Positions 13,617 to 26,707 of a stretch of DNA of 51,156 nucleotides are shown one piece after another (the stretch's first letter is position 1; the number at the start of each line of letters is the position of its first letter). The notes beneath the pieces were generated by a model, which worked only from the letters and a program-made list of their open reading frames with translations, searched no databases and was not told where the DNA came from. Source of the DNA: a virus (Duplodnaviria; Caudoviricetes); the IMG/VR virus record IMGVR_UViG_3300032303_000302, positions 1-51,156 of that record; one strand, given 5' to 3'. Made by a program: the position numbers and the translations under genes.

Positions 13617-13692
<76 letters not shown>

Positions 13693-13697
13693 TTATT

Positions 13698-13773
13698 GGG
13701 GGATTAGCTCATTTGGTAGAGCGTCTGCCTTGCACGCAGAAGGCGAACGGTTCGATCCCGTTATCCTCCACCA
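13698..13773 (+). tRNA. tRNA-Ala(TGC)
   Basis: Cloverleaf, G3-U70, CCA. Confidence 0.95.
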
Positions 13774-13778
13774 TTTTA

Positions 13779-13908
13779 GACCTCCTCGGCTGAACCCCGT
13801 GGGTAACCACATAGAGAAAGTGATGGGTGTTACTGTTGCAACAGTAAACGGCTATCAGGGAAGATTGCAACGTCCGGAAGTAAGCAATCAAGGCACACTG
13901 AGGAGGTC
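13779..13908 (+). ncRNA. Unknown ~130-nt structured RNA between tRNAs
   Basis: Closing stem GACCTCCTCGG/CTGAGGAGGTC and three internal hairpins. Confidence 0.6.
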
Positions 13909-13916
13909 ACTAAATT

Positions 13917-13992
13917 GCCTTTGTAGCTCAGTTGGTAGAGCAGTGGTTTGAAGAACCACGTGTCGGGGGTTCAATTCCCTCCGAAGGCACCA
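13917..13992 (+). tRNA. tRNA-Phe(GAA)
   Basis: GTGGT-TTGAAGA-ACCAC anticodon arm, CCA. Confidence 0.9.
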
Positions 13993-13993
13993 T

Positions 13994-14078
13994 GCGGATG
14001 TGGCGGAATTGGTAGACGCCCTGGTTTTAGGTACCAGTGACTTCGGTCGTGGGGGTTCGAGTCCCTTCATCCGTACCA
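13994..14078 (+). tRNA. tRNA-Leu(TAG)
   Basis: Long variable arm, CCA. Confidence 0.94.
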
Positions 14079-14084
14079 GTTTAA

Positions 14085-14169
14085 GGGTTGGTAAAGCCAG
14101 TGGCTCTGGCAGTCAGACTGTAAATCTGATCCGTTTGCGGGGGAGGATCGATACCTCACTGGCCCACCA
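14085..14169 (+). tRNA. tRNA-Tyr(GTA), atypical D/T loops
   Basis: TCAGA-CTGTAAA-TCTGA; variable arm; CCA. Confidence 0.82.
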
Positions 14170-14176
14170 TTATAAT

Positions 14177-14250
14177 GCGGATGTAGCTCAATGGTAGAGC
14201 TCCTGGCTTCCACCCAGATGACGAGGGTTCGATTCCCTTCATCCGCTCCA
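14177..14250 (+). tRNA. tRNA-Gly(TCC)
   Basis: Cloverleaf, U73, CCA. Confidence 0.92.
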
Positions 14251-14256
14251 TTTAAT

Positions 14257-14335
14257 ACTCCCATAGCTTCAACTGGAATAGAGCACACCGCTACGAACGG
14301 TGAGGTTAGAGGTTCGAATCCTCTTGGGAGTACCA
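14257..14335 (+). tRNA. tRNA-Arg(ACG)
   Basis: CACCG-CTACGAA-CGGTG, CCA. Confidence 0.92.
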
Positions 14336-14363
14336 TTGAATGAGAAGAAGGTTTTAAAGTTCT

Positions 14364-14371
14364 TATAAATA
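14364..14371 (+). promoter_or_regulatory. T4-type late promoter
   Basis: TATAAATA 22 nt before the 14394 gene. Confidence 0.7.
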
Positions 14372-14393
14372 TATAATATAAGGAACTTTATCT

Positions 14394-15533
14394 ATGACAA
14401 ATTCTACTTTTAAATTCTTTTCAGAAAAAATGGGCGGCCACCCAGCCAGCACCTTTATTGGTCAATATGGCGAGGTTTTTTATGATCCAGCGCTTGGTAA
14501 CCTTCGTCTTGCTGACGGTGTAACAATCGGTGGATTACCTCTAACTCAACCAAATGCGATCGCAGATAATCGCTGGTATGTTGATCCAATTAGAACAGAC
14601 ATTGTTCTTGGGACAGCTACTGGTAGTTTAGCAAATCCATTCTTAACAATTACTGAAGCTTTAGCATATATTGAAGCAAGAATTGCTGATGGTAGTTTAG
14701 TTATTTCGATATCAGGCTCTGTCATAGACAATCCACAGTTTATTGTATTGGTAAGTTCTACTACAGAAAACGTAACATTAACTCGCGGTAATATTTTTAT
14801 TATTGGTGATACTCCAGATGCTGGACACATACCTATTTGGATCAATGGAAAAGTTGTTATTACTCCTGCAGACTCGAGTGAAAATGCTCTAAACGTTAAT
14901 AGATTTGGTCTGTTTCATGTTGCGGTTAAAACAAATGTGGCAAACCATTCTATTGAAATAAATGGAGCTAATCCAGCAAAAGTTTATTTACAAGATGTAT
15001 ATTGCTATCAAGGCAACGCTACCAAGAGTTGTGTTTATGCGAATAACACAGGTACCGGCAGTAGAGTAGAACTATATGATTGTACCATGGCAAGAGCTAG
15101 CGGTTCTGTATTTCTAATTAATATTCAACGCGGATATTGTACTATACGCAATCTTGAAACTAACGGCACCGGACAAGTGCTTAATATGGCAAATGATTCT
15201 ACAGGAAATATGCTAAGAAGTATAGTAGATGCCGACACTGGCGCTGTAGTTACTCTAAGTGGAACAGTTCAGTGGGGTATGGGGGAAGTTATTCTCAACA
15301 ATACCTCCACTGCAGCAAATACATATGGTGTTAGCATGAGTGGTACAGCAACCATACAGTTTGGGGTGTGCACATTTAACATTCCAGCTGCGCAAGCAAC
15401 CAATCGTGCCATTAACGGTGTAGCAGGCAATCAGGTACTGTATGCTGATCCAATATTCCAATATGGTTCAACTAACAAGATATCAACTGCGATTACATTA
15501 GTTCCGTTGACTAAAACGTTTACTGCAGCATAA
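14394..15533 (+). CDS. Late virion fibre/spike-like protein (Mtd/hyaluronidase-type N-terminal domain, probable beta-helix body)
   Basis: GEVFYD....LRLADGVT.GG motif; GS.ANPF.TI.EA beta-helix cap; Asn/Thr/Gly-rich. Confidence 0.6.
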   Translation: MTNSTFKFFSEKMGGHPASTFIGQYGEVFYDPALGNLRLADGVTIGGLPLTQPNAIADNRWYVDPIRTDIVLGTATGSLANPFLTITEALAYIEARIADGSLVISISGSVIDNPQFIVLVSSTTENVTLTRGNIFIIGDTPDAGHIPIWINGKVVITPADSSENALNVNRFGLFHVAVKTNVANHSIEINGANPAKVYLQDVYCYQGNATKSCVYANNTGTGSRVELYDCTMARASGSVFLINIQRGYCTIRNLETNGTGQVLNMANDSTGNMLRSIVDADTGAVVTLSGTVQWGMGEVILNNTSTAANTYGVSMSGTATIQFGVCTFNIPAAQATNRAINGVAGNQVLYADPIFQYGSTNKISTAITLVPLTKTFTAA

Positions 15534-15580
15534 ACACGATCATATGGCGTTTTCTCAAATGTTATGCGATCCAGTTTAAT

Positions 15581-15656
15581 GGCCCGGTCGTCTAGTGGCT
15601 AGGACACTGCTCTTCCAAGCCGTAAGGGATGGGTTCGATTCCCATATGCCGCTCCA
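15581..15656 (+). pseudogene. Chimeric pseudo-tRNA (Glu/Asp-type 5' half + Gly(TCC)-type 3' half)
   Basis: Good D arm, T arm and CCA, but acceptor GGCCCGG/ATGCCGC and anticodon stem do not pair. Confidence 0.65.
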
Positions 15657-15732
15657 ATTAGATGTGGATACAATGCGCCTAGTCGCTGTCGCAATTCCAT
15701 ACACATATTGCCGATACGTGAGGCGATATCCA

Positions 15733-15740
15733 TATAAATA
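15733..15740 (+). promoter_or_regulatory. T4-type late promoter
   Basis: TATAAATA before the esterase gene. Confidence 0.6.
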
Positions 15741-15777
15741 ACTTTACAATATATTCTGCATATGGTACAACAGTAAT

Positions 15778-16323
15778 ATGAAAAGCACAGTCGTTTATAT
15801 CCATGGCTATGGTAGTGATCCTTCAGGTAGCACTGCACAAGACATTAAGAAGTCTTTTCCTAGTGAAAAGTTTCTTAGCCCTAAGATAGACCATTCGCAG
15901 GATCCTGATCTAATTAAGAAACAGATGGATACCTTTGCGAAGACCCTAGGCAAGCACGATGATGTCATTATCGTTGGTTCAAGTGCCGGTGGGTTTTGGG
16001 CTGATTATCTTGGCGCTGTATATGGGTTTAAAACCGTTCTTGTAAATCCGTCACTGCGCCCTGCTACTAACTATAAGAAGTATAACTTGCCTCCTGAGTA
16101 CTATGATAAGTACGCAGATATGCAAGAATGGATTAAGCATCACACCCGCCACCATATGGTAGCATTTGCTGGCGATAAAGATGAAGTCGTTCCATTAGAA
16201 CATGTAAAGACACACTTTAAGAATCCGATTATGTTGAAGGGTGAAGGTCATAGGCTAAAGAATATGACTCCGGTTGTTAAGATGATTCAATCAATGATTG
16301 GTAATTTTCCGGAGCATAACTAA
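15778..16323 (+). CDS. YqiA/YcfP-like alpha/beta hydrolase (esterase)
   Basis: YIHGYGS, GSSAGG nucleophile elbow, LVNP, DEVV, GEGH. Confidence 0.85.
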   Translation: MKSTVVYIHGYGSDPSGSTAQDIKKSFPSEKFLSPKIDHSQDPDLIKKQMDTFAKTLGKHDDVIIVGSSAGGFWADYLGAVYGFKTVLVNPSLRPATNYKKYNLPPEYYDKYADMQEWIKHHTRHHMVAFAGDKDEVVPLEHVKTHFKNPIMLKGEGHRLKNMTPVVKMIQSMIGNFPEHN

Positions 16324-16898
16324 TGTTAACATTTAAAGCATTTCTTTCTGAAGGATTTTCAATTCTTCGTCCTGAACATGAAGATGAAAAGCATAAGCAT
16401 GCAGAGCATGTCTTTAACATGGTCCATAATGCTTATAAGTCTATTGGTGGTATTCATGGTTCAGGTTTTAAAGACCGCCATGATATGGTTAAGAATATTC
16501 CAATCTGGAAGCTTCATAAAGATCATACTGGTAAGGTAAGAGCAGTTGGACTATATAAAGTAAAGAATGGTAAGACAAAGCGTGTTGCCGTTGCTACTGA
16601 TAATAGTGCAGAGGGCAAGGTAGGTCTTAAACATATCGTTAAGAATGATCTTGTATCCAAACGTGCTTTTGTAGAGACATCTGGTCCCTCGCTTAACTTT
16701 CATAAGAGGGTACTTGGTGATCTTACAAAACATGCTCTGACACATGAGCAGGTACGTAAACACTTACCGGATGACGAAATTAGACCTGCACCTCATGATG
16801 ACCCTGAAGTACAGCGTCATCCTGAATTAAAGAAACATTTCTATCAACGAAAAATTGGTGGTGACTGGCATACTAAGATAGCTTTAGGTCATCACTAA
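16323..16898 (+). CDS. Putative internal head protein (capsid-targeting N-terminus), His-rich
   Basis: MLTFKAFLSE resembles the T4 IP capsid-targeting sequence MKTYQEFIAE. Confidence 0.6.
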   Translation: MLTFKAFLSEGFSILRPEHEDEKHKHAEHVFNMVHNAYKSIGGIHGSGFKDRHDMVKNIPIWKLHKDHTGKVRAVGLYKVKNGKTKRVAVATDNSAEGKVGLKHIVKNDLVSKRAFVETSGPSLNFHKRVLGDLTKHALTHEQVRKHLPDDEIRPAPHDDPEVQRHPELKKHFYQRKIGGDWHTKIALGHH

Positions 16899-16904
16899 AA
16901 CAAT

Positions 16905-16986
16905 GCTCTGATATCCCGCTCCGCTACGAACGGAGACTAAGGTAACTGGAACGAAAATGCAGGTTCGAATCCTGTTCAGAGCTCCA
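16905..16986 (+). ncRNA. tRNA-like RNA type A, copy 1 (no canonical D arm, ACG stem-loop)
   Basis: GCTCTGA/TCAGAGC-T-CCA acceptor; CTCCG-CTACGAA-CGGAG; T arm GCAGG-TTCGAAT-CCTGT. Confidence 0.8.
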
Positions 16987-16987
16987 C

Positions 16988-17060
16988 CGGGAAGTAGTTC
17001 AAGTGGTAGAGCGCGTGCTTTGGGAGCACGAAGTTGCAGGTTCGAGTCCTGTCTTCCCGA
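16988..17060 (+). tRNA. tRNA-Pro(TGG), CCA not encoded
   Basis: CGGGAAG/CTTCCCG acceptor, CGTGC-TTTGGGA-GCACG. Confidence 0.88.
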
Positions 17061-17162
17061 CATAGAGTCCTGGCATTTTATAAATAGGCATACGATAAGA
17101 CCTACTGTAAAATTCCAGGACTATAAACACGACGAACTTTCTGTAAAAAACTTCGTCTTTAT

Positions 17163-17238
17163 GGGGGTGAGGGAAAACGGTAATCCGCGGGTCTCCAAAA
17201 CCTTGAGAAGTAGGTTCGACTCCTACCACCCGCCGCCA
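17163..17238 (+). tRNA. tRNA-Trp(CCA), atypical (bulged acceptor stem)
   Basis: CTCCAAA loop, GTAGG-TTCGACT-CCTAC, G73, CCA; extra G in 3' acceptor strand. Confidence 0.7.
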
Positions 17239-17259
17239 ATTTTAACTAAAGGATGTATC

Positions 17260-17703
17260 ATGTATGAAAAGGCAAAGCAGGCAATCATAGATTCAAGTCT
17301 TGAGTCTTCTATCTATGTGGGGTGTGATAGTATTCGTTTTAAGAAGCGAGGACAGTGGTATGCAAAGTTCTCCACTGTTATTATCATACATAAAGATTCT
17401 AAGAAGGGTGGACGGGTATTCCATACTTCTGTAGATATGCCTGACTATGGTAACCTGAAGCAGCGTCTTCTAACGGAAGTACAACTAGCTGTTACTGCTG
17501 CTACAGAGATTATCGATGTTATCGGAGATCGCCATTTCGAAGTGCATCTTGATATCAACCCTAATCCGAAGCACAAGTCAAACGTTGCTGTTAAGGAAGC
17601 TCTTGGCTGGGTAAGAGGTTCACTAGGTATGGACGCTAAGATCAAGCCCGCATCGTTTGCTGCTACTCATGCCGCAGACCATGCAGTAAGACATTTACAT
17701 TAA
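17260..17703 (+). CDS. RNase H-like YkuK (DUF458) family protein
   Basis: IYVGCDS, RLL.EV, EVHLDIN, KP.SFAA.HAAD; start after AAGGA (the ORF-track extension overlaps tRNAs). Confidence 0.82.
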   Translation: MYEKAKQAIIDSSLESSIYVGCDSIRFKKRGQWYAKFSTVIIIHKDSKKGGRVFHTSVDMPDYGNLKQRLLTEVQLAVTAATEIIDVIGDRHFEVHLDINPNPKHKSNVAVKEALGWVRGSLGMDAKIKPASFAATHAADHAVRHLH

Positions 17704-17730
17704 AAAGAATCTCTGTTCCTTGTTTTAGGC

Positions 17731-17759
17731 TTGACCTTTTATATAATATGGTATAGTAT
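17731..17759 (+). promoter_or_regulatory. Early promoter
   Basis: TTGACC-17-TAGTAT. Confidence 0.55.
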
Positions 17760-17784
17760 AAAAAAATAAGGAATGGAGAAAAGC

Positions 17785-17958
17785 ATGACAGAGATTTTTC
17801 AAACAATCTTAACTAACTTTGGAACCACACTATATACTGGTGAGAGCGTCGACGTTGCTCAGGTTAACGCTGAGACGTCTGGTTTCGAATGCACGGTCCT
17901 TCGCGATGGATCGTTGATCTTTAGTTATTCTCCAATCTCTGGATGGAAGGCTTACTGA
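17785..17958 (+). CDS. Small hypothetical protein
   Basis: ATG after GGAG. Confidence 0.6.
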   Translation: MTEIFQTILTNFGTTLYTGESVDVAQVNAETSGFECTVLRDGSLIFSYSPISGWKAY

Positions 17959-17959
17959 T

Positions 17960-18148
17960 ATGACTGTTGAAGATTATAAAAAGTGGGCAGATGAACTCAA
18001 AGCTGAGTTGGATGCAGCAAACTTTGAAAGTGCTCATCATTATCAATATGTCAAAGATTTGTACTGGAGCATTTTAGCAAAGTCAAAGGGTACCACATCG
18101 AGGAAACTCAACCCTATGAATTTTTGGTTTGGTGGACAATCTAATTAA
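17960..18148 (+). CDS. Small hypothetical protein
   Basis: 62 aa, tightly coupled to upstream ORF. Confidence 0.55.
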   Translation: MTVEDYKKWADELKAELDAANFESAHHYQYVKDLYWSILAKSKGTTSRKLNPMNFWFGGQSN

Positions 18149-18154
18149 TAATAT

Positions 18155-18230
18155 GCCCGGTTAGCTCAGCGGTAGTAGCGTTTCCTTTACACGGAAAATG
18201 TCGGCGGTTCGATCCCGTCACCGGGTACCA
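18155..18230 (+). tRNA. tRNA-Val(TAC)
   Basis: Cloverleaf, CCA. Confidence 0.92.
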
Positions 18231-18236
18231 GTTTAT

Positions 18237-18311
18237 TCCTCAATAGCTCAGCGGTAGAGCCGCGCACTGTTAATGCGCTGGTCGGTGGTTCGAATCCATC
18301 TTGAGGAGCCA
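18237..18311 (+). tRNA. tRNA-Asn(GTT)
   Basis: Cloverleaf, G73, CCA. Confidence 0.93.
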
Positions 18312-18315
18312 GTTT

Positions 18316-18425
18316 GTGGCGAGATATCTTTACGGGTAATGCCGGTCTCTGTAAGTCCACTATACCTCGGTAAGTATTAAAACTGCCGACCACACCGCCG
18401 CCCGTATGGTGTCTAAATATCCCGG
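18316..18425 (+). ncRNA. Pseudoknotted structured RNA, possibly manA-motif related
   Basis: GTGG/CCAC and GAGAT/GTCTC stems, GCCG..CTCTGTAAGT segment, TACGGGT/GCCCGTA loop-loop complementarity. Confidence 0.5.
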
Positions 18426-18436
18426 GCCTAGTTTTA

Positions 18437-18547
18437 TTGGCCCTAAGTCTGGTGAGAATGTGAGCCGCGCGGGGTTCCGTAGAGAGGTTCGAAACTCTTG
18501 AAGGGATTAAAAGCACTAAGCTGGGTTCGATTCCCAGGGGTCAGCCA
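18437..18547 (+). ncRNA. Enlarged tRNA-like RNA (type B)
   Basis: TGGCCC/GGGTCA-G-CCA end, T arm CTGGG-TTCGATT-CCCAG, no recognisable anticodon arm. Confidence 0.5.
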
Positions 18548-18553
18548 ATTCAT

Positions 18554-18629
18554 GGTGGTTGTAGCTCAGAGGTAGAGCGGCGGTTTGTGGTACCGCATGT
18601 CGCGGGTTCGATCCCCGTCTTCCACCCCA
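18554..18629 (+). tRNA. tRNA-His(GTG) with G-1 and C73
   Basis: GCGGT-TTGTGGT-ACCGC; encoded G-1; two U-U mismatches in acceptor stem. Confidence 0.88.
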
Positions 18630-18630
18630 T

Positions 18631-18705
18631 GCACTGTTAGCTCAGAGGGAGAGCATTCGCCTGATAAGCGAAAGGTGGAAGGATCGTTACCTTCACGGTG
18701 CACCA
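18631..18705 (+). tRNA. tRNA-Ile(GAT)
   Basis: TTCGC-CTGATAA-GCGAA; variant T-loop ATCGTTA; CCA. Confidence 0.88.
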
Positions 18706-18713
18706 GTTTTAAT

Positions 18714-18791
18714 GTGACGGTGGCGGAGTGGTCCAACGCAAGAGACTGCAAATCTCTAAAGCCGTGGGTTCGAATCCCACCCGTCACTCCA
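18714..18791 (+). tRNA. tRNA-Cys(GCA)
   Basis: Cloverleaf, U73, CCA. Confidence 0.92.
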
Positions 18792-18806
18792 CTATAAGAG
18801 GTTGTT

Positions 18807-20060
18807 ATGCTAAAAAACGTTTATATTCTGCATATTGATGATCCTAAATCATTGCAATACCTTAATGACTGCTTAGAGTCATGTAAGCAGTTTCCTGATA
18901 TTAACGCTATCCCCGTACAGGGGTATAAAGGCGTCAATTACAAAGATATCTGCGATGAGTTTGGCATTGGTATCATTCCGTTTTATGTTAATCAGATGGC
19001 TGAAAATGGAGATACTATTAACAAAGCTTTCTCATGCACTGCAGGACATATCAAGATCTGGCAGATGATCGTTGATTCCGATGCGCCGGGTGTGGTACTC
19101 GAGCATGACGCTATTATCAAAGGCCCTCTTGTAAATGTAGATGTCAATGATGATGAGATCCTATGGCTTGGTCCTCGTATTGATCTTGAACATGATTATA
19201 CATTCCCCCCTGAAACGATTTTCGACTATGTCGATATTAACCGCTGGGAAGGTACCCATGCATATGCTATCACACCTAAGACAGCTCAGTTCCTTCTTGA
19301 TTCGATTAAGAAGTTTGGACTGAACGATTCTATCGACGGGCAGCTTGGTATGCGTAATATGTTTGATATGAATTTTGTTACTATCAATCCACCTGTAGCT
19401 GTTGCTGTGGTTGGTAATCGTGAATCATGTATTGAGAGCCATGGCAATCCAGGCTTCTGGAATGCTTATCATTCTGATCAATTCTTGAAGAATCTAAAAC
19501 CAGGATGTAAGGTACCTCCTCTTCGCCAGCTCATGTATACAGACATGTCGTTTAACACGCTTGTCCCTGCATTAGAACAGGTTCTAAGGGGGGCTGGTAA
19601 GTTAGACGGTAAAGAGCAGTCGGTACTCGTACAAGGGGGCTATGAAGGGCTCTCCAGTGTATGGCTATCGAACAAATTGCTACAGCACGATGATAGCTAC
19701 ATGCAGATCGTATCTAGCTTTGCTAGTCAGAATGCGCAGAAGATATGCGCATTTAATACGTACTTCAGTAAGTACTATTATAAGTTGAATATGATACCTA
19801 TAGAACAGGGTAGTACACTGCTTGAACAAGCTGTAAATGATCCTGAAATTCGCTTCGATGTTATTTTCTCTGATGGGAATAAGACTTTCAAAGAAGTTCT
19901 TTATGATGGCATTTTACAGTGGAACCTATTAAAGAGTGATGGTATATTGATATTCAATGGTGAAGTCGATGTAGTACATGAAGCAGTAAAAAATATCATT
20001 GATGCAGTTAACCCGATTGTACTATATAAAGATAAAATTATTGTTCTTAAAAAACTTTAA
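18807..20060 (+). CDS. GT25-like glycosyltransferase fused to a degenerate SAM-methyltransferase-like domain
   Basis: SC..GH..IW, VLEHDA, GTHAYAITP..A (GT25); GGYEG.S..W, FD.IFSDG, LK..GIL.F (Methyltransf_24-like). Confidence 0.7.
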   Translation: MLKNVYILHIDDPKSLQYLNDCLESCKQFPDINAIPVQGYKGVNYKDICDEFGIGIIPFYVNQMAENGDTINKAFSCTAGHIKIWQMIVDSDAPGVVLEHDAIIKGPLVNVDVNDDEILWLGPRIDLEHDYTFPPETIFDYVDINRWEGTHAYAITPKTAQFLLDSIKKFGLNDSIDGQLGMRNMFDMNFVTINPPVAVAVVGNRESCIESHGNPGFWNAYHSDQFLKNLKPGCKVPPLRQLMYTDMSFNTLVPALEQVLRGAGKLDGKEQSVLVQGGYEGLSSVWLSNKLLQHDDSYMQIVSSFASQNAQKICAFNTYFSKYYYKLNMIPIEQGSTLLEQAVNDPEIRFDVIFSDGNKTFKEVLYDGILQWNLLKSDGILIFNGEVDVVHEAVKNIIDAVNPIVLYKDKIIVLKKL

Positions 20061-20066
20061 TTGATT

Positions 20067-20318
20067 ATGAAAAAAGCCTTATACGAAGCTGTGTATGATA
20101 CATTAATAGCTGCGGTGATTAATTTTCCACTCGGCTATATGCTTACTAAAGTGTGTATGGATGTATTTCATATGCAAGCGTTCGGTGTTGCGCTTGTTAA
20201 TTTCCTAATAATGACAGTGATAGCTATCACACGTAAGACGTTAGTTAGATTAAAGTTTGCAAAAAGAGATAATGCGGCATTGGTGATAAAGGAAGCACGA
20301 GACGTTGCCAACGTCTAG
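20067..20318 (+). CDS. Small membrane protein; 3' end overlaps tRNA-Gly
   Basis: Two hydrophobic helices; EA..DT..A..INFPL motif. Confidence 0.6.
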   Translation: MKKALYEAVYDTLIAAVINFPLGYMLTKVCMDVFHMQAFGVALVNFLIMTVIAITRKTLVRLKFAKRDNAALVIKEARDVANV

Positions 20319-20348
20319 GAACCGGATCGTTACCGGTATGCCGCTCCA
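20274..20348 (+). tRNA. tRNA-Gly(GCC), atypical D/T loops
   Basis: GCGGCAT/ATGCCGC-T-CCA; AGACG-TTGCCAA-CGTCT. Confidence 0.82.
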
Positions 20349-20355
20349 TTTTAAT

Positions 20356-20432
20356 GGCCCCATAGTTTACGTTGGCTAGAATCCTGCCCTTTCAAGGCGG
20401 TGGACCGGGATCGACACCCGGTGGGGTCACCA
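20356..20432 (+). tRNA. tRNA-Glu(TTC)
   Basis: CTGCC-CTTTCAA-GGCGG, CCA. Confidence 0.9.
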
Positions 20433-20439
20433 TTTATAT

Positions 20440-20513
20440 TCCCTGTTCGTCTAGCGGTAGGACAACTGACTCTGACTCAGTTTACGGTGGTTCGAATCCA
20501 TCACAGGGATCCA
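20440..20513 (+). tRNA. tRNA-Gln(CTG)
   Basis: ACTGA-CTCTGAC-TCAGT, U1-A72, CCA. Confidence 0.92.
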
Positions 20514-20520
20514 GCATCTT

Positions 20521-21135
20521 ATGGATAATATGATAAAATACGATTCTGATTCTGAAGCCTGGCTTAATACTGATTTGTCTGATCTTTGGGTCTTTGACAA
20601 ACTTCTTTTGTCTAAACATCTAGGCTATGTTTGTGGACCTACTGGTGTAAATGTTCCCGTACCCGGAACATATATTGTAAGACCTTGTATGAATCTATTG
20701 GGTATGGGTATTGGTGCAAGATTTGTTGATTTAGTAGATACAACAGAACACCTACCTCCCGGTTATTTCTGGTGTGAAGTTTTCACTGGTTCGCATCTAA
20801 GTGTAGATTATTACCAGGGTAAACAGATTCTTGTAGTAGAAGGCAAACGGAACTCTGACTCTCCCCTATGGAAATTTTTACAATGGGATAGACTGGATAA
20901 CATTGAAGTTCGTTTTCCAGATAGTCTCTCTCATTTGTTTAATAAACACAATTATATTAATGCTGAATATATAGACGGAAGACTAATCGAACTCCACTTT
21001 AGAACAAATCCTGATTTCGAATATGAAAATACTGTAGCTATCCCCGTTTGGGAAGTTGATGAAATAAACGTTCCCGATGGATATACATATGTGTCTAAGC
21101 CTGATTATAAAAGAAAAGGCTTCTATATTAAGTAA
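20521..21135 (+). CDS. Conserved T4-like hypothetical protein (possibly ATP-grasp-like)
   Basis: DKL.LS..LGY.CGP.G..VP.PG.YIVRPC.N..GMG, FWCE.F.G.H.SVDY, N.E.I...LIE.H.R.NPDF. Confidence 0.7.
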   Translation: MDNMIKYDSDSEAWLNTDLSDLWVFDKLLLSKHLGYVCGPTGVNVPVPGTYIVRPCMNLLGMGIGARFVDLVDTTEHLPPGYFWCEVFTGSHLSVDYYQGKQILVVEGKRNSDSPLWKFLQWDRLDNIEVRFPDSLSHLFNKHNYINAEYIDGRLIELHFRTNPDFEYENTVAIPVWEVDEINVPDGYTYVSKPDYKRKGFYIK

Positions 21136-21142
21136 TATCTAT

Positions 21143-21216
21143 TGCCCCTTCCTCTAATGGTAAGAGCGCGGACTTTGAATCCGTCAATCTAGGTTCGAAT
21201 CCTAGAGGGGCATCCA
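21143..21216 (+). tRNA. tRNA-Gln(TTG)
   Basis: GCGGA-CTTTGAA-TCCGT, CCA. Confidence 0.92.
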
Positions 21217-21233
21217 AATTAAAGGTGAAAAAG

Positions 21234-21908
21234 ATGAGTGACTTTAAACTATCGATTGTTATACCTACTATGTGGAAGTTTGAACCATTCTACGAGTTCT
21301 TACAATATATGTGTCTAGTTGATACTGTAGGAGAAGTTATTCTTATCGATAATAACGAGACAGAGCGACCAAATATTGAGTTCCATCCGAAGGTTAAGAT
21401 ACACAATTTTAATAAAAACATTTACGTTAATCCTGCATGGAACTATGGTATATCCGTGGCAGAGAACGATAACATCTGTGTTCTGAATGATGATGTTCTC
21501 GTTGATCTGAAACTTTTTTATAAAATTAAAGAAGTTCTTAAACCTGGAAGATTGGTTGTTATAGCAGCTAATTATAATAAGGAAGTCACTGTTACTGGTC
21601 AACAGCATGTTGTTGCTCGAAATACTGTCGACACTGTTCACTGGGGATGTTGTTGGTTCATTCATCGCTCTGACTGGGTTGAAGTGCCAGCAGGCATGGA
21701 CATCTACCATGGAGATCACTGGATTGAAAAGATGATGGAAATGCGTGGAAAGGAAATCGTAGCAATTACGGACATTTTTTTTCACACACCAATTAGTGCT
21801 ACACAAAAGTTTGTAGCAGATGAAGTTTGGTACCATCGTGAAAGCCTTTTATATGGACATTTATTGCAGAACTACTATAATCGTTATATAAACACTGTGA
21901 AAGGATAA
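21234..21908 (+). CDS. Glycosyltransferase family 2 (GT-A)
   Basis: SIVIPT, EVILIDN, AWNYG, VLNDDV (DxD), GDHW. Confidence 0.85.
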   Translation: MSDFKLSIVIPTMWKFEPFYEFLQYMCLVDTVGEVILIDNNETERPNIEFHPKVKIHNFNKNIYVNPAWNYGISVAENDNICVLNDDVLVDLKLFYKIKEVLKPGRLVVIAANYNKEVTVTGQQHVVARNTVDTVHWGCCWFIHRSDWVEVPAGMDIYHGDHWIEKMMEMRGKEIVAITDIFFHTPISATQKFVADEVWYHRESLLYGHLLQNYYNRYINTVKG

Positions 21909-21911
21909 ATT

Positions 21912-22148
21912 ATGAGTGAAACTACTGACGATCGCCTTCGCCTTTTCATTGAACGTATTGAGCGTTTGTCTGAGGAAAAGAAAGGTATTGCTGACGATAT
22001 TAAGGACGTCTATGCCGAGGCTAAGGGTACAGGTTATGATACCAAAGCAATGAAGGAAGTCATTAAGATTCGTAAGAAGTCACGTGATGACCGGTTGAGC
22101 GAAGAAGCAATCCTCGAGACGTATAAGTGCGCCCTCGGCATCGATTAA
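21912..22148 (+). CDS. gapR: GapR (DUF2312/UPF0335) nucleoid-associated protein
   Basis: [32 protein letters not shown]...[11 protein letters not shown]. Confidence 0.93.
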
Positions 22149-22157
22149 TTTTAACAC

Positions 22158-22234
22158 GGACGATTAGCTCAGTAGGTTAGAGCACGCGCCTCTTAAGCGC
22201 TAGGTCCTCGGTTCGAATCCGAGATCGTCTACCA
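22158..22234 (+). tRNA. tRNA-Lys(CTT)
   Basis: Cloverleaf, CCA. Confidence 0.92.
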
Positions 22235-22296
22235 TTTAAGGCGCTGATCAAGAAGCTTAATTCTGCATAGGCAGAGCCTATATAAGTATATAATAC

Positions 22297-22386
22297 GGAA
22301 GCGTGGCAGAGCCAGGTTTATTGCACCAGTCTTGAAAACTGACGAACAGAAATGTTCCCTGGGTTCGAATCCCAGCGCTTCCGCCA
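22297..22386 (+). tRNA. tRNA-Ser(TGA)
   Basis: Long variable arm, G73, CCA. Confidence 0.93.
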
Positions 22387-22395
22387 TTATATGAT

Positions 22396-22467
22396 GCCAG
22401 CAGAACAAGTGTTCAGCCGACTCTCATAAGGTTGGATTGGTTGGAGCGTTACCAACTGCTGGTACCA
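22396..22467 (+). tRNA. Atypical tRNA with CAT anticodon (Met or Ile2), minimal D arm
   Basis: GCCAGCA/TGCTGGT-A-CCA; GAAC-AAGT-GTTC D arm; 6-bp anticodon stem; T-loop AGCGTTA. Confidence 0.72.
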
Positions 22468-22492
22468 ACATTAAAAAGAGGAATATAATATT

Positions 22493-22648
22493 ATGGATAT
22501 CAAGACTTACATTGCTGCTGCTGTTGTTGCTCTTACTGCTGCATGTTCTCAGGAAGCTCCTGTTGTTGAACAAAATGAAACGGTTAACGAATCAGTAGAT
22601 TCGGCAACAGATGTACCAGCTGCTACATATACAAGCGAAGTAAATTAA
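22493..22648 (+). CDS. Small lipoprotein (51 aa, not in ORF track)
   Basis: MDIKTYIAAAVVALTAA-C lipobox; GAGG RBS; terminator follows. Confidence 0.7.
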   Translation: MDIKTYIAAAVVALTAACSQEAPVVEQNETVNESVDSATDVPAATYTSEVN

Positions 22649-22655
22649 TTAAAAA

Positions 22656-22686
22656 GACCAGGGGATAACACCCCTGGTCCACTTTT
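22656..22686 (+). terminator. Probable intrinsic terminator
   Basis: GACCAGGGG-ATAACA-CCCCTGGTC then CACTTTT. Confidence 0.65.
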
Positions 22687-22690
22687 GGGA

Positions 22691-22730
22691 TTGACTTTTT
22701 TATCTGTTTTTCCTATATTTAATTATAGAA
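22691..22730 (+). promoter_or_regulatory. Early promoter cassette
   Basis: TTGACT-17-TATATT-TAATTATAG. Confidence 0.75.
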
Positions 22731-22749
22731 AATAGAAAAAGGTTTTATT

Positions 22750-22959
22750 ATGAACAATCTTATTGCAGCAGTTCGTGAATATGCCATCGCTAACTATGAA
22801 AAAGATGGTTGGGACTATCTCGTTGAATGCTGGGAAGATAGCGATATTCAAGAAGTTATCGGTACAGCAAAGACTGAGCGTTCAGCGATTGCTGCATGTC
22901 GTCGTACATTACGTCTTATGGATGAACGCCGTCAGGAAGTACGATCAGAAGTTTGGTAA
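22750..22959 (+). CDS. Small hypothetical early protein
   Basis: A..NY...GWD..VE.W pattern common in phage small proteins. Confidence 0.7.
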   Translation: MNNLIAAVREYAIANYEKDGWDYLVECWEDSDIQEVIGTAKTERSAIAACRRTLRLMDERRQEVRSEVW

Positions 22960-22966
22960 TTTATAC

Positions 22967-23042
22967 GGACGGTTAGCTCAGTAGGTAGAGCAACGGGCTT
23001 TTAACCTGTTGGTCCTGGGTTCGAGTCCCAGACCGTCCACCA
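22967..23042 (+). tRNA. tRNA-Lys(TTT)
   Basis: Cloverleaf, CCA. Confidence 0.93.
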
Positions 23043-23060
23043 TTTTCGGAGTTATATGTT

Positions 23061-23279
23061 ATGGGTAATTTTGAAAAATTCTTAATTAAGATTTTATCTA
23101 TAGCCATCGCTTGTGCTATTATGGCGTTCCCTGTAATGTGGATATGGAACGGTGATCTAGTTCAAGCTGTAACGTTTGCCAAGCCTATTACTTGGTCTAA
23201 CGCATTTGGCATTTATCTCTTAGTATATATTCTAGGTCATGCAGCTACGGCAGATTTTAACGATAAATCTGATAAGTAA
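23061..23279 (+). CDS. Small membrane protein
   Basis: FPVMWIWN...ITW..AFG; two TM segments. Confidence 0.65.
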   Translation: MGNFEKFLIKILSIAIACAIMAFPVMWIWNGDLVQAVTFAKPITWSNAFGIYLLVYILGHAATADFNDKSDK

Positions 23280-23285
23280 ATACAC

Positions 23286-23374
23286 GGAACGTGAGCCATG
23301 CGGTAAAGGCAGCGCACTGCTAATGCGTAACACCCCAAAGGGTGTGCTGGGTTCGACTCCCAGACGTTCCGCCA
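23286..23374 (+). tRNA. tRNA-Ser(GCT)
   Basis: GCGCA-CTGCTAA-TGCGT, long variable arm, CCA. Confidence 0.9.
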
Positions 23375-23392
23375 CACACATATATAATACAT

Positions 23393-23468
23393 GGGGATGT
23401 AGTCCAAAGGCAGAGACAGGGCGCTTAAAACGCCTACAGTGTGGGTTCGAGTCCCACCATCCCTACCA
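23393..23468 (+). tRNA. tRNA-Leu(TAA), short variable loop
   Basis: GGGCG-CTTAAAA-CGCCT, CCA. Confidence 0.87.
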
Positions 23469-23484
23469 TATTGAAAGGTATATT

Positions 23485-23901
23485 ATGTTAGAATGTTTGA
23501 TTATGGGTGATTCGATCGCTGTTGGTACTAAAATGTTTGCTCCTAAGGAATGCGTATCGTATTCTAAGGGTGGTTGGAACACCTGGCAGTGGAATAAGAA
23601 GTGGGGTAAGACTCCTCTTAGTGCTCAGACCGTAGTTATCAGTCTAGGCACAAATGATCACAAAGGGGTAAATACCTACAAAGAACTTTCTAAGATCCGT
23701 TACCGTATTAACTCTTTGAAGGTTGTATGGATCATGCCACCTTGTAATAAAGGCTTCTGTAAGCCTAATGTTAATGCTTCTGTGAGAGAAATCGCACACG
23801 ACTACGGTGATACGATCATTGGTACTGAGTTTGTGCAACCAGATCACATTCATCCATCGTGGCGTGGTTACAAAGACTTAGTTAATAAGGCTAAGTTGTA
23901 A
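23485..23901 (+). CDS. Small SGNH/GDSL hydrolase-like protein
   Basis: GDSIAVG, SLGTND, DHIHP; start after AAAGG (the ORF-track extension overlaps tRNAs). Confidence 0.75.
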   Translation: MLECLIMGDSIAVGTKMFAPKECVSYSKGGWNTWQWNKKWGKTPLSAQTVVISLGTNDHKGVNTYKELSKIRYRINSLKVVWIMPPCNKGFCKPNVNASVREIAHDYGDTIIGTEFVQPDHIHPSWRGYKDLVNKAKL

Positions 23902-23910
23902 ACGTATAGT

Positions 23911-24001
23911 GGTCCTATAGCTTAACGGTAGAGCGGCCGGATTTATATCCCGGAGCCCAGATAAGGGGACGGTCTTGGTTCGAATCCAAGTGGGACTACC
24001 A
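23911..24001 (+). tRNA. tRNA-Ile(TAT) with long variable region
   Basis: GGTCCTA/TGGGACT-A-CCA; loop TTTATAT; ~20-nt extra arm. Confidence 0.78.
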
Positions 24002-24009
24002 ATTTTAAT

Positions 24010-24090
24010 GCCTCTGTAACCACCCTGAATACGAATCAGGAGTAAGGTAACTGGATGAAAATGCAGGTTCGAATCCTGTCAGAGGCTCCA
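24010..24090 (+). ncRNA. tRNA-like RNA type A, copy 2
   Basis: GCCTCTG/CAGAGGC-T-CCA; CCTGA-ATACGAA-TCAGG; same TAAGGTAACTGGA and T arm as the 16905 copy. Confidence 0.8.
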
Positions 24091-24092
24091 TT

Positions 24093-24554
24093 TTAAACAT
24101 CTATATGATGTGCTTGAACACCATAACCTACAGTAGTTGCTCTGGTATTACCCGCTAAAAGATGATGATGGAGTTGACCATTCTCGTCTTTATGACGAAG
24201 AATGATAGGACGGTCAATGCCTTGATTTGATCCTATGAGTCTTTTAACTCTTTGTAATTTAGTTTTACTCTCAACGGAATTCGAACCTTGACCAATTTCA
24301 GAATTACCAATTTGATTTCCCCTTTTGACGGGTTGTATTTTTGATCGTGCAAGTGCTGAACGGAATGCGTTTTTATTTTGAGCAAAGTGACCGATAGCCT
24401 TGGCTATTGCTGGATGAGGAGAGTCCATGTTACCGCTTTGTATGGCTTGATGCTGAACAACTGCTTCTCCATGCTCTTCGTCCGATTGTCTTTTTGCATC
24501 TGGTTTGTTATAAATAACAGACTCAATAATGAAGTAATCAATAAATCTAAGCAT
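24093..24554 (-). CDS. Putative internal head protein with ParB/Srx-like motif
   Basis: MLRFIDYFIIE N-terminus; PIIL...HLLAGNTR; own late promoter. Confidence 0.62.
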   Translation of the reverse strand: MLRFIDYFIIESVIYNKPDAKRQSDEEHGEAVVQHQAIQSGNMDSPHPAIAKAIGHFAQNKNAFRSALARSKIQPVKRGNQIGNSEIGQGSNSVESKTKLQRVKRLIGSNQGIDRPIILRHKDENGQLHHHLLAGNTRATTVGYGVQAHHIDV

Positions 24555-24577
24555 ATACGTCCTTTTTAATTTATGTA

Positions 24578-24585
24578 TATTTATA
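24578..24585 (-). promoter_or_regulatory. T4-type late promoter
   Basis: TATAAATA on minus strand 23 nt upstream of ATG 24554. Confidence 0.7.
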
Positions 24586-24589
24586 ATTT

Positions 24590-24605
24590 CGGGAAGTAGC
24601 TCAGG
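24590..24605 (+). pseudogene. 5' fragment of a tRNA-Pro
   Basis: CGGGAAGTAGCTCAGG nearly matches the start of tRNA-Pro at 16988; the rest is missing. Confidence 0.45.
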
Positions 24606-24635
24606 TGCTCGTTTGCTTAGTCAATAAGTTAATAT

Positions 24636-24711
24636 GCCTCGTTAACTCAGTTGGTAGAGTGCATCCTTTACACGGATGAAGTCGGCGGTTCGAGCCCGTC
24701 ACGAGGTACCA
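24636..24711 (+). tRNA. tRNA-Val(TAC), second isodecoder
   Basis: Cloverleaf, CCA. Confidence 0.93.
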
Positions 24712-24729
24712 TTTTAAATCTTTTTTGGG

Positions 24730-24782
24730 TTGACCTTTTATTAAAAGAAGGGTATTGTTAATTATAAGTTGGAAAGAAGGAA
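24730..24782 (+). promoter_or_regulatory. Early promoter cassette
   Basis: TTGACC-17-TATTGT-TAATTATAAGTTGGAAAGAAGGAA. Confidence 0.8.
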
Positions 24783-24788
24783 TTCGTT

Positions 24789-25184
24789 ATGTATACCTTG
24801 TCAGACATTAACACCCTTACTAACTCTAAGGATGGAGACATCTACTCGGACCTGTACAAGGATGTGTACGGTTGCCGTCCTCGTTACGCTGAGTTTGCCT
24901 CTACAGAGGAGTTTGACACAGACTTCGAGGCTCTCATCAATATGCTTAACCGCAAGGATGCGGAAGAAGCAAAGCGTCAGGCGCGTAACTTCGAGGACTT
25001 CATGCGCCGTGTTAGCGGTATCATGCGTACGGTCATGGGGTCTGATCGGGCTGATGCCGTTCGTATCTTGTGTGCAGCTGAGGGTATTGACGAGGAGGAG
25101 TTTGCCTTCTACGGTTTTGAGTCTCTCGAATACAAGTTCGACCTTAAGTTCGGTTCCATTAAAGAGTGGCTGGAGGTTGCATAA
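24789..25184 (+). CDS. Conserved phage early hypothetical protein
   Basis: SDLYKDVYG.RPR motif; codon usage more GC-rich than neighbours. Confidence 0.75.
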   Translation: MYTLSDINTLTNSKDGDIYSDLYKDVYGCRPRYAEFASTEEFDTDFEALINMLNRKDAEEAKRQARNFEDFMRRVSGIMRTVMGSDRADAVRILCAAEGIDEEEFAFYGFESLEYKFDLKFGSIKEWLEVA

Positions 25185-25396
25185 TGAACTCCTATCTTAT
25201 CTCTACCAACAAGGGTTGGATTAAGACTAACGACGAACGAATGGTTCAGATGCCATTCACTATCGATGAGATGATCGCAGACAATAGTGTTCTCGATCAT
25301 CCTACTGATTTAGACCCGACACCGTATAAAGTCTTCTTTGTAACAAAGAATGGCGAAGATTATTGGGAATTTGGAGAGTACGTTGGCATCGCTTGA
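25184..25396 (+). CDS. Small hypothetical protein
   Basis: TAATG overlap with upstream gene. Confidence 0.6.
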   Translation: MNSYLISTNKGWIKTNDERMVQMPFTIDEMIADNSVLDHPTDLDPTPYKVFFVTKNGEDYWEFGEYVGIA

Positions 25397-25718
25397 CACT
25401 TTCTTTGGTGAACTAGAAGAGCCTATGGTAAACCAAATACAAACACTATCCGAAAAGATTCGCCAGCGTCGTACACAGATGCTGGTGCATTCTTATCTCT
25501 ATTATGTTATGGATGAGAATGTTATCTCCGACGAAAAGTGGCAGCAGTGGGCAGATGAACTTACATCACTTCAAGAGATGTGGAATACACACGGTATGAC
25601 CAAAGAGATTGGTTTTTACGATAAAGAGTTCACTGACTGGAACGGTTCTACCGGTATGCATCTTCCTAGGGACAAATGGATTGTAGACCGTGCAAAGCTC
25701 CTACTAAAGAATCACTAG
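25383..25718 (+). CDS. Stand-alone NAD+-dependent DNA ligase domain Ia-like protein
   Basis: HSYLYY.MD...ISD..W.....EL..LQ motif; start uncertain (TTG 25383 or ATG 25425). Confidence 0.65.
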   Translation: MASLDTFFGELEEPMVNQIQTLSEKIRQRRTQMLVHSYLYYVMDENVISDEKWQQWADELTSLQEMWNTHGMTKEIGFYDKEFTDWNGSTGMHLPRDKWIVDRAKLLLKNH

Positions 25719-25739
25719 AATTTGCTCTGAAAGGATAAT

Positions 25740-26312
25740 ATGAAGGATTTAATCTTAACTGACTGTGATGGCGTTCTCCTTAATTGGGAGTTTGCTTTCG
25801 ATTGCTGGATGGAAGACAAGGGTTATAAAGGTATTCGAAAAGACGATTACGACATTTGTATTCGTTATGATATTACAGAGCCAGTGGCTTCGGCTCTCAT
25901 TAAGGAGTTTAACCAGTCGGCTGCAATCGGATTCCTTCCTCCATTGCGTGACGCGATGCACTATGTTAAAAAATTGCACGAAGAGCACGGTTATGTGTTC
26001 CGTGTAATTACTAGTTTAAGTGCAAATCCTTACGCACAGAAACTTCGGGAAAAGAACCTGGAGAAACTGTTTGGTACTGCTATTGATAGCATAATCTGTT
26101 TAGATACTGGTGCCGATAAGGATGCTGCTTTGGAACCGTATCGTAATTCTGGTCTGTACTGGATTGAAGATAAGGCAGAAAACGCAGAGCTCGGCAAGTC
26201 TATTGGGCTTACGTCTTTGCTTATGGAACATGAGCATAATATGTTTAATAATAAGGTACCTCTCGTAAAAAATTGGTACGAAATTTGGAACACCATTGTA
26301 AATGGTGACTAA
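25740..26312 (+). CDS. HAD-family phosphatase / 5'-nucleotidase (T4 gp30.2-like)
   Basis: LTDCDGVLL, VITSL, WIEDK..N. Confidence 0.82.
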   Translation: MKDLILTDCDGVLLNWEFAFDCWMEDKGYKGIRKDDYDICIRYDITEPVASALIKEFNQSAAIGFLPPLRDAMHYVKKLHEEHGYVFRVITSLSANPYAQKLREKNLEKLFGTAIDSIICLDTGADKDAALEPYRNSGLYWIEDKAENAELGKSIGLTSLLMEHEHNMFNNKVPLVKNWYEIWNTIVNGD

Positions 26313-26320
26313 ATACAATA

Positions 26321-26652
26321 TCAGTTGTTGACAGGCAACAATAAAGGCGGAAAGACAGGGGTTCGACTCCCCTCACCTCCACCATAGATACATTGGACGG
26401 TCTTAGCCTGCTCGGCGGACCGGTTACCTTGGCGGGTAGCGAACGATAGTGCGCCAACACTGTTTATATCCAGTGTGTCTATGATGGGGGTGACCTGGAT
26501 ATCGATTTTCGTGTAATAGGGCGTCCGAGACTGATTCGGTGGCTGAGCGGCCAAAAAACAATAAATGCAGCGAACGATAACTCGTCTGTTGAATTCGCCC
26601 TAGCGGCTTAATTCAAATGCGCCCGGAGGGAGCGTGGAAACAGAATCCCTCC
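26321..26652 (+). ncRNA. ssrA: Circularly permuted two-piece tmRNA (alphaproteobacterial type)
   Basis: Acceptor piece with T arm and CACCTCC-A-CCA ending at 26384; coding piece starts GGGGGTG at 26486 (G3-U70); tag frame 26567-26611 AANDNSSVEFALAA*. Confidence 0.92.
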
Positions 26653-26655
26653 ACT

Positions 26656-26663
26656 TATAAATA
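26656..26663 (+). promoter_or_regulatory. T4-type late promoter
   Basis: TATAAATA. Confidence 0.65.
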
Positions 26664-26707
26664 CACTGTCCACTAAGGGCATACACACATACACAAAGGA
26701 AATAATT

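Follow-up and report, generated by a model that had tools for sequence, protein, structure and literature searches.

A predicted strand-swapped tRNA-Arg(ACG) in a T4-like phage and its family among other phages

Two copies of one tRNA-like element

The virus record IMGVR_UViG_3300032303_000302 (51,156 nt; "the window" is this whole stretch of DNA) is a 51-kb record assigned to a T4-like myophage from its baseplate, tail tube and ssb genes. Its plus strand carries a tRNA/tmRNA cluster (13617..26702) with 23 tRNAs called by ARAGORN and a permuted tmRNA, and within this cluster lie two plus-strand copies of a tRNA-like element, at 16905..16986 (copy 1) and 24010..24090 (copy 2). It is proposed here, with a probability of about 0.7, that each copy is a tRNA-Arg(ACG) gene in which two internal blocks, tRNA positions 9-20 and 21-46, have changed places, and that its RNA would adopt the L shape, be charged and decode.

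An earlier note on this DNA had pointed out the shared architecture of the two copies, and its description holds: 7-bp acceptor stems that differ but stay paired, U73 followed by CCA, a 7-nt segment after the acceptor strand, 5-bp stems closed by a (C/A)TACGAA loop, and identical T arms. A 13-mer common to both copies occurs exactly at 16938 and 24043. The note had read the differences between the stems as covariation, and every acceptor and anticodon-stem pair does covary among the homologs described below. Chance is excluded by the homologs, 174 distinct elements with all three stems, and not by folding energy (z = -1.3 and -2.3 for the two copies).

In tRNA numbering, which is itself deduced from the sequence, the chain would run 1-8, 21-46, 9-20, a linker and 48-76. 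In copy 1, the acceptor 5' strand (1-7) and U8 occupy 16905..16912, the strand pairing with 16976-16982 as supported by covariation. The block assigned to positions 21-46 follows at 16913..16938, comprising A21, the D-stem 3' strand (22-25, at 16914-16917), base 26, the anticodon arm (16919-16935, with the anticodon ACG at 16926-16928) and bases 44-46. The block assigned to positions 9-20 comes next (16939..16950), with A9, the D-stem 5' strand (10-13, at 16940-16943) and a D loop reading A14 A15 C16 U17 G18 G19 A20 (16944-16950). The 3' part (16951..16986) holds a 7-nt linker, U48 (16958), the T arm (16959-16975), the acceptor 3' strand, U73 and CCA. Copy 2 has its anticodon at 24031-24033, D-stem strands at 24019-24022 and 24045-24048, D loop at 24049-24055 and U48 at 24062; it carries an unusual A32, and its minimum free energy fold includes an ACC/GGU helix. 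Copies 1 and 2 score 78.2 and 80.7 bits against a family model (R1), for which both were training sequences.

Compared with the canonical bacterial tRNA-Arg(ACG/ICG) of RF00005, the copies share the 7-bp acceptor, U8, the 5-bp anticodon stem with its 7-nt loop, U33 and A37, the D-loop GG, A20, R15:Y48, the 5-bp T stem and CCA; they differ in the order of blocks 9-20 and 21-46, in having a predicted three-way junction and in lacking a D hairpin between acceptor and anticodon arm. The anticodon arm begins 7 nt after the acceptor strand, and the D-loop motif comes later. A normal-order tRNA-Arg(ACG), identified by tRNA scans and from its sequence, lies separately in the same cluster (14257..14335, plus strand), as the earlier note had stated; it has the same AACTGGA string in its D loop as the swapped copies, and its anticodon loop is that of copy 1.

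Standard finders handle these elements poorly. ARAGORN misses both copies. With the tRNA model RF00005 they score weakly (33.5 and 31.8 bits against a 29-bit gathering threshold), and reach this only in an alignment that lacks the D arm and contains an insert of some 20 nt; copy 2 is unlisted in wider Rfam scans. The copies have no Rfam family of their own. No other Rfam family covers the window copies or the elements in 20 homolog loci, and YrlA (RF02553) has no match over either set; a tmRNA match in one homolog locus is a 17-nt, 13-bit fragment of the 3' end. YrlA Y RNA and the tRNA-like domain of tmRNA mimic the tRNA elbow with unusual connectivity, whereas in the swapped elements the anticodon arm is complete and the acceptor ends are free.

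Block order and covariation

The homolog search suggested by the earlier note yielded a family of at least 174 distinct sequences and bore out its view that the gene is tRNA-like but no cloverleaf, is conserved under selection and has homologs. The 174 elements come from pattern scans of IMG/VR and GTDB and from BLAST of cultured phages. They were parsed by requiring acceptor, anticodon and T stems and a D-loop-like A-R-N-GG, with D-stem pairing left free. A sequence-only MAFFT alignment of 139 of them (A1, near-duplicates removed) shows the segment after the acceptor strand pairing with the segment just before AACTGGA: pair 23:12 is kept in 139/139 and 24:11 in 133/139, with 18 and 4 double changes, respectively. 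A further scan, in which both D-stem strands were free at the tested positions and 27 of 64 parts were covered, gave 119 loci, 104 with three stems and 86 distinct elements. Pair 23:12 is formed in all 86 (CG 51, AU 21, GC 14) and 24:11 in 85, and an unsupervised search over 3,081 column pairs by mutual information with average-product correction (MI-APC) picked the same partners for both. Over the family, four pair types occur at 23:12 and require at least three double changes, the pair counts being those of related sequences and not of independent events. Since the segment after the acceptor strand pairs with the AGG before AACTGGA and not with TGGA, the ACG hairpin is best read as the anticodon arm and TGGA as G18-G19-A20 of the D loop.

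Tertiary signals are consistent with this assignment. The Levitt pair 15:48 covaries among 103 elements in which both positions were free (A15-U48 in 76, G15-C48 in 24, other in 3). Other bases of the L shape (U8-A14, and G18/G19 with the T loop) are present, but are partly fixed by the search patterns. An A follows U8 in 174/174 elements, precedes strand 10-13 in 161/174 and precedes position 48 in 173/174. In canonical tRNA, U8 touches A21, base 9 lies between 45 and 46, and 26-44 stacks on 10-25. By these contacts, two of the new joints would link spatial neighbours, and only the joint from 20 to 48 would need a linker; the observed linkers are 3-9 nt long.

Other departures from the cloverleaf differ from this arrangement. 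D-armless mitochondrial tRNA-Ser likewise has no D hairpin after the acceptor stem (available parts of PMC7609411 and PMC9976931), but the phage elements keep D-stem pairs, D loop and Levitt pair in a moved position, and these relocated pairs covary. Permuted and split tRNA genes of algae and archaea also have segments out of order, but as described in the accessible part of PMC4033280 they are circularly permuted halves restored by splicing; in the phage form the acceptor strands are in normal order, with no 3' half upstream of a 5' half, and the internal block swap is predicted to persist in the mature RNA. Allo-tRNAs are non-canonical too, occur in bacteria and phages, and some have Arg or Ile(UAU) anticodons (PMC5389517, seen in part). 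They alter the acceptor/T split (8/4 or 9/3) and keep cloverleaf order, whereas the elements in A1 are 7/5 with an altered order. No description of a block-swapped tRNA was found in the literature covered, with subscription papers mostly outside that coverage. The available text of PMC7609411 deals with Sec, selC, allo-, Pyl and mitochondrial tRNAs, and such a swap does not appear in the corresponding parts of PMC5389517, PMC4033280, PMC9897764 or PMC10690425; for the last, the search excluded the alignments of its 10,006 viral candidate RNAs, where the motif may sit unrecognised.

Distribution, anticodons and genomic setting

The family is real, widespread in phages and distinct from canonical cloverleaf tRNAs. 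The broadest IMG/VR scan gave an estimated 550 or so matching stretches, with acceptor and T stems in 102 of 104 distinct parsed strings, and later scans (base 35 = G/U; D-stem-free) added 40 elements to the 174. Cultured carriers include phages of Streptomyces, Microbacterium, Caulobacter and Rhizobium and crAss-like phages. Those checked with R1 are Mildred21 (four copies), Zooman (two), RHph_I1_18 (two), XacN1, CM1, the crAss-like "tikkala", CcrColossus, Bitten, PA11, NiceHouse and Cp1R7A-A1. BLAST matched 77 Streptomyces phage records, Mildred21 being the one checked. Its four swapped tRNAs comprise one annotated as tRNA-Phe, one as tRNA-OTHER and two without annotation: a swapped Arg-UCG is labelled tRNA-Phe(gaa) in GenBank (L496:29368-29446) and begins 2 nt after an HNH endonuclease gene, and a swapped Arg-UCU is labelled tRNA-OTHER (L496:24380-24457). 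In GTDB (11 of 64 parts scanned), 8 of 120 listed loci are real, all on contigs of metagenome-assembled genomes (MAGs) and 7 of the 8 beside tRNA genes. A swapped Ile-UAU on a 212-kb Omnitrophota MAG contig (L404:1483-1562, minus strand) has no other tRNA within 1.5 kb and may be cellular. One plasmid query gave no match. Over the whole set, 133 of 174 elements have a normal same-strand tRNA at most 280 nt away.

BLAST matches in T5-like phages were rejected as members, as they fall in the 5' part of T5 RNAX and are without the anticodon hairpin (35.8 bits). In that part (L018:16430-16504, minus strand), the second block of the family, with the D-loop motif, linker and T arm, comes after a D arm of normal appearance. 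T5 RNAX is labelled a "stable RNA of unknown function"; its tRNA-like unit, which has no clear anticodon arm and is conserved in many T5-like phages, is possibly a derived or intermediate form of the swapped tRNA.

Only arginine and isoleucine types are common. The 174 elements carry Arg anticodons ACG (81, a count inflated by the search patterns), UCG (8), UCU (7) and CCU (1), Ile anticodons UAU (65) and GAU (10), one Val and one CAU; Arg GCG and CCG, another Val and a single Lys turned up in later scans. Two scans for other anticodons gave 3 loci, of which one Val-UAC element parsed, and a whole-collection scan with base 35 = G/U gave 74 loci, one of them with three stems (Lys-CUU); Leu-NAG with a free D stem was covered in part. 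The rare Lys-CUU, two Val-UAC and CAU forms (L682:131-211 on the minus strand, L299:294-373, L823 and L464:294-373) suggest anticodon shifts within the family. The 65 distinct Ile-UAU elements (L255-L372) mostly have no encoded CCA and a U27-U43 mismatch; a swapped tRNA with this anticodon would read AUA without lysidine.

Where position 20 was left free in the search, it is A in 29/29 Arg elements and U in 73/74 others, thus covarying with anticodon base 35; A20 is also found in 84/84 Arg elements from the later scans. A20 and C35 are given as the main determinants for arginyl-tRNA synthetase (ArgRS) in the available part of PMC9976931, and both window copies have the identity set A20, C35 and G/U36. 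That a relocated A20 still tracks the anticodon suggests that ArgRS sees it in its usual place. U33, A37 and stem lengths are kept across the family, and CCA is encoded in both copies and in 90/97 Arg-type elements.

The use of swapped and normal forms was compared in 19 near-complete genomes, made up of 4 cultured phages and 15 IMG/VR records. The latter come from a set of 21 with a completeness of 87% or more, from which five of the largest genomes and one at 87% were omitted. Normal tRNAs were called with relaxed ARAGORN, the tikkala entry rests on its R1 match, and one G027 variant was uncounted. Where a swapped form exists, a normal tRNA with the same anticodon accompanies it in only 3 of 34 genome-anticodon cases, and one of these 3 appears spurious; in cases lacking the swapped form, the figure is 41 of 80. 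For Arg-UCU the figures are 0/8 and 9/11 (Fisher p = 0.0007, indicative only: the genomes share ancestry and were selected as carriers of the elements, so that p-values overstate independence), and for Ile-GAU 1/3 and 14/16. In one genome (G044), none of the 26 normal tRNAs is for Arg and four swapped Arg tRNAs are present; another (G046) lacks a normal Ile tRNA and carries two swapped ones. The swapped tRNA therefore usually replaces the normal isoacceptor, in near mutual exclusion. The statement of the earlier note that the copies are not needed for decoding stands for this window, where a normal ACG tRNA is present, and fails elsewhere, where the normal isoacceptor is usually absent.

In the window, copy 1 starts 6 nt past the stop of an open reading frame (ORF; 16323-16898, plus strand) and is followed after 1 nt by tRNA-Pro. 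Copy 2 ends 2 nt from the stop of an ORF on the minus strand (24093-24554), and 8 nt upstream of it lies a normal-order tRNA-Ile(UAU) with a long variable arm (23911-24001, plus strand). Neither flanking ORF, for which the earlier note had proposed a capsid-targeting N-terminus, has a match in Pfam or PHROG. Each copy thus adjoins a gene, as noted before, but this link is not conserved elsewhere: a same-strand ORF is adjacent to 14/34 swapped elements and to 209/480 normal tRNAs. An adjacent HNH gene was found for 1 of 34 swapped elements (18 adjacent ORFs scanned). The ORFs beside normal tRNAs were subjected to a crude motif screen only, positive for 10/480 tRNAs, which missed the one known HNH, so the comparison speaks neither for nor against an enrichment of homing endonucleases. 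A promoter and terminator scan gave signal at chance level. Of 364 Arg codons counted in 27 window ORFs, 203 are CGU, CGC or CGA. A GapR-like gene in the window, together with the permuted tmRNA, points to an alphaproteobacterial host.

Other RNAs were observed on the plus strand of the cluster. A tRNA-Tyr(GUA)-like gene at 14085-14169, by eye with an 8-bp acceptor, a 4-bp T stem and CCA, is unannotated and called by neither ARAGORN nor Rfam; the available part of PMC5389517 names 8/4 Ser and His tRNAs in alphaproteobacterial phages, and not Tyr. Between tRNA-Ala and tRNA-Phe, a structured RNA of about 130 nt (13779-13908) with an 11-bp closing stem (-52 kcal/mol) has no Rfam match. A tRNA-like RNA of about 110 nt (18438-18546) shows an apparent acceptor stem, T arm and CCA around a long non-tRNA interior, and is preceded by a second GC-rich stretch (18314-18432). 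ARAGORN also misses a CAU-anticodon tRNA with an odd T loop (22395-22468), a tRNA-Trp(CCA) (17163-17237; 42.5 bits in Rfam) and a degenerate tRNA (15586-15657; 22.8 bits).

Proposed decoding, alternatives and significance

The tRNA reading is drawn from the block order, the pairing of the segment after the acceptor strand with the one before the D loop, the Levitt covariation, the coupling of A20 to the anticodon, the location in a tRNA cluster and the near exclusion with isoacceptors. In the proposed pathway, the copies would be transcribed with the cluster and their ends trimmed by RNase P and 3' nucleases. The D and anticodon stems would form one long hairpin of a three-way junction, and the single-stranded D loop would dock on the T loop (G18-U55, G19-C56, A14-U8). 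A34 would be edited to I, and after charging by the host ArgRS the tRNA would decode CGU, CGC and CGA during infection. More broadly, hundreds of phages across distant bacterial phyla probably use such strand-swapped, three-way-junction tRNAs, charged with Arg or Ile and decoding on host ribosomes, sometimes as the sole tRNA for that amino acid.

Several points weigh against this interpretation or limit its support. Watson-Crick pairing in the D-stem equivalent is reliable for two pairs only; its outer pairs are mostly non-Watson-Crick (22:13 paired in 20/86, 25:10 in 36/86), and RNAalifold omits this helix, finding three stems only. Returned to normal order in silico, the elements are called by ARAGORN with their own anticodon in 174/174 cases, against 1/174 natively, and of 25 breakpoint settings tried, only the chosen one and one equivalent shift reached this score. 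ARAGORN is permissive, however, and with the moved block shuffled it still calls a mean of 135 and a maximum of 146 of 174, which makes the test supportive but weak. U73, found in both copies and in 43/97 Arg-type elements, departs from the listed Arg discriminator A/G73, although yeast ArgRS does not need base 73 (PMC9976931, in its available part). The ACG anticodon alone is uninformative in the genome comparison (1/13 against 1/6), and the relatedness of those genomes also counts here.

The most serious alternative, though an unlikely one, is that the RNA has the same swapped L fold and mimics a tRNA without decoding. It could then be a decoy, with anticodon nucleases, TadA or sensors of uncharged tRNA as its targets, or, once charged, serve as a donor in reactions outside translation. 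The normal Arg-ACG beside two swapped copies in this window, which also speaks against the decoding reading and has a parallel in Zooman, would fit a mimic, as would the unusual A32 of copy 2 and the prevalence of Arg and Ile types. Some odd tRNAs are indeed charged yet non-translating, according to the accessible part of PMC5389517. However, a decoy would be expected to accompany the normal tRNA and not to replace it, and the isoacceptor is present in only 3 of 34 cases; in some genomes, every Arg or Ile anticodon is served by swapped copies alone. Stem lengths, U33, A37 and synthetase identity are also preserved.

It is improbable that the elements are D-armless tRNAs of the mitochondrial tRNA-Ser(AGY) kind, whose variable loop would be long and loose and in which the resemblance of AACTGGA to a D loop would be structurally meaningless: RF00005 aligns the elements in this way and RNAalifold finds three stems, but compensatory changes at 23:12, 24:11 and 15:48 and the coupling of position 20 to the anticodon argue otherwise. 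It is more improbable still that the transcript is cut and religated to normal order. The reordered sequences do become ARAGORN-callable, and processed permuted tRNA genes exist in algae and archaea (PMC4033280, in part), but three cuts and three ligations would be needed within an RNA of only 80 nt. Two of the three joints show no loss of a base, and a closed acceptor stem with CCA already terminates the gene. Hardly tenable, and rejected here, is the fold of the earlier note, which paired the CC after the acceptor strand with the GG of TGGA, placing the ACG hairpin in a D loop with no arm at the anticodon position: TCC and GGA are complementary in copy 1 and many homologs (middle pairs in 121/139 and 136/139), but as that GG is fixed by the search patterns only breaks are informative, and A1 has 18 breaks and no double change, the D-stem-free scan keeps the pairing in 51/86 elements with the first middle pair broken in 35/86, the outer pair is U-U in the Ile type, and the AGG-segment pairing, kept in 86/86 and favoured by covariation and MI-APC, makes the hairpin an anticodon arm that continues the D-stem helix.

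If the strand-swapped tRNA reading is right, the leading guess is that the swap persists because it lets the tRNA escape host tRNA-cutting defences that recognise the usual D arm or variable region. Almost as plausible is a near-neutral rearrangement that has spread through the exchange of clusters. Phage tRNAs have been proposed to evade host tRNases (PMC10264068), and T5 tRNAs are unlike host tRNAs around the D loop (PMC12475279); the available parts of these papers do not deal with Arg or Ile tRNAs directly. The arrangement could have arisen by duplication of 9-46 followed by two deletions.

The order acceptor-D-anticodon-T has been treated as universal, and the printed exceptions found lose or resize arms or are spliced back. 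The family is mostly unannotated and invisible to standard tRNA finders. Recognising it puts phage annotation right, since genes that are now blank or mislabelled fill what look like gaps in Arg and Ile tRNA sets. Because cultured phages with harmless laboratory hosts carry it, direct testing is feasible, including of escape from tRNA-cutting defences. If true, a natural swapped-strand tRNA would break the supposedly universal cloverleaf order and provide a new scaffold for tRNA engineering, and it would mean that synthetases, EF-Tu, RNase P and the ribosome read the shape of a tRNA and not the path of its chain.

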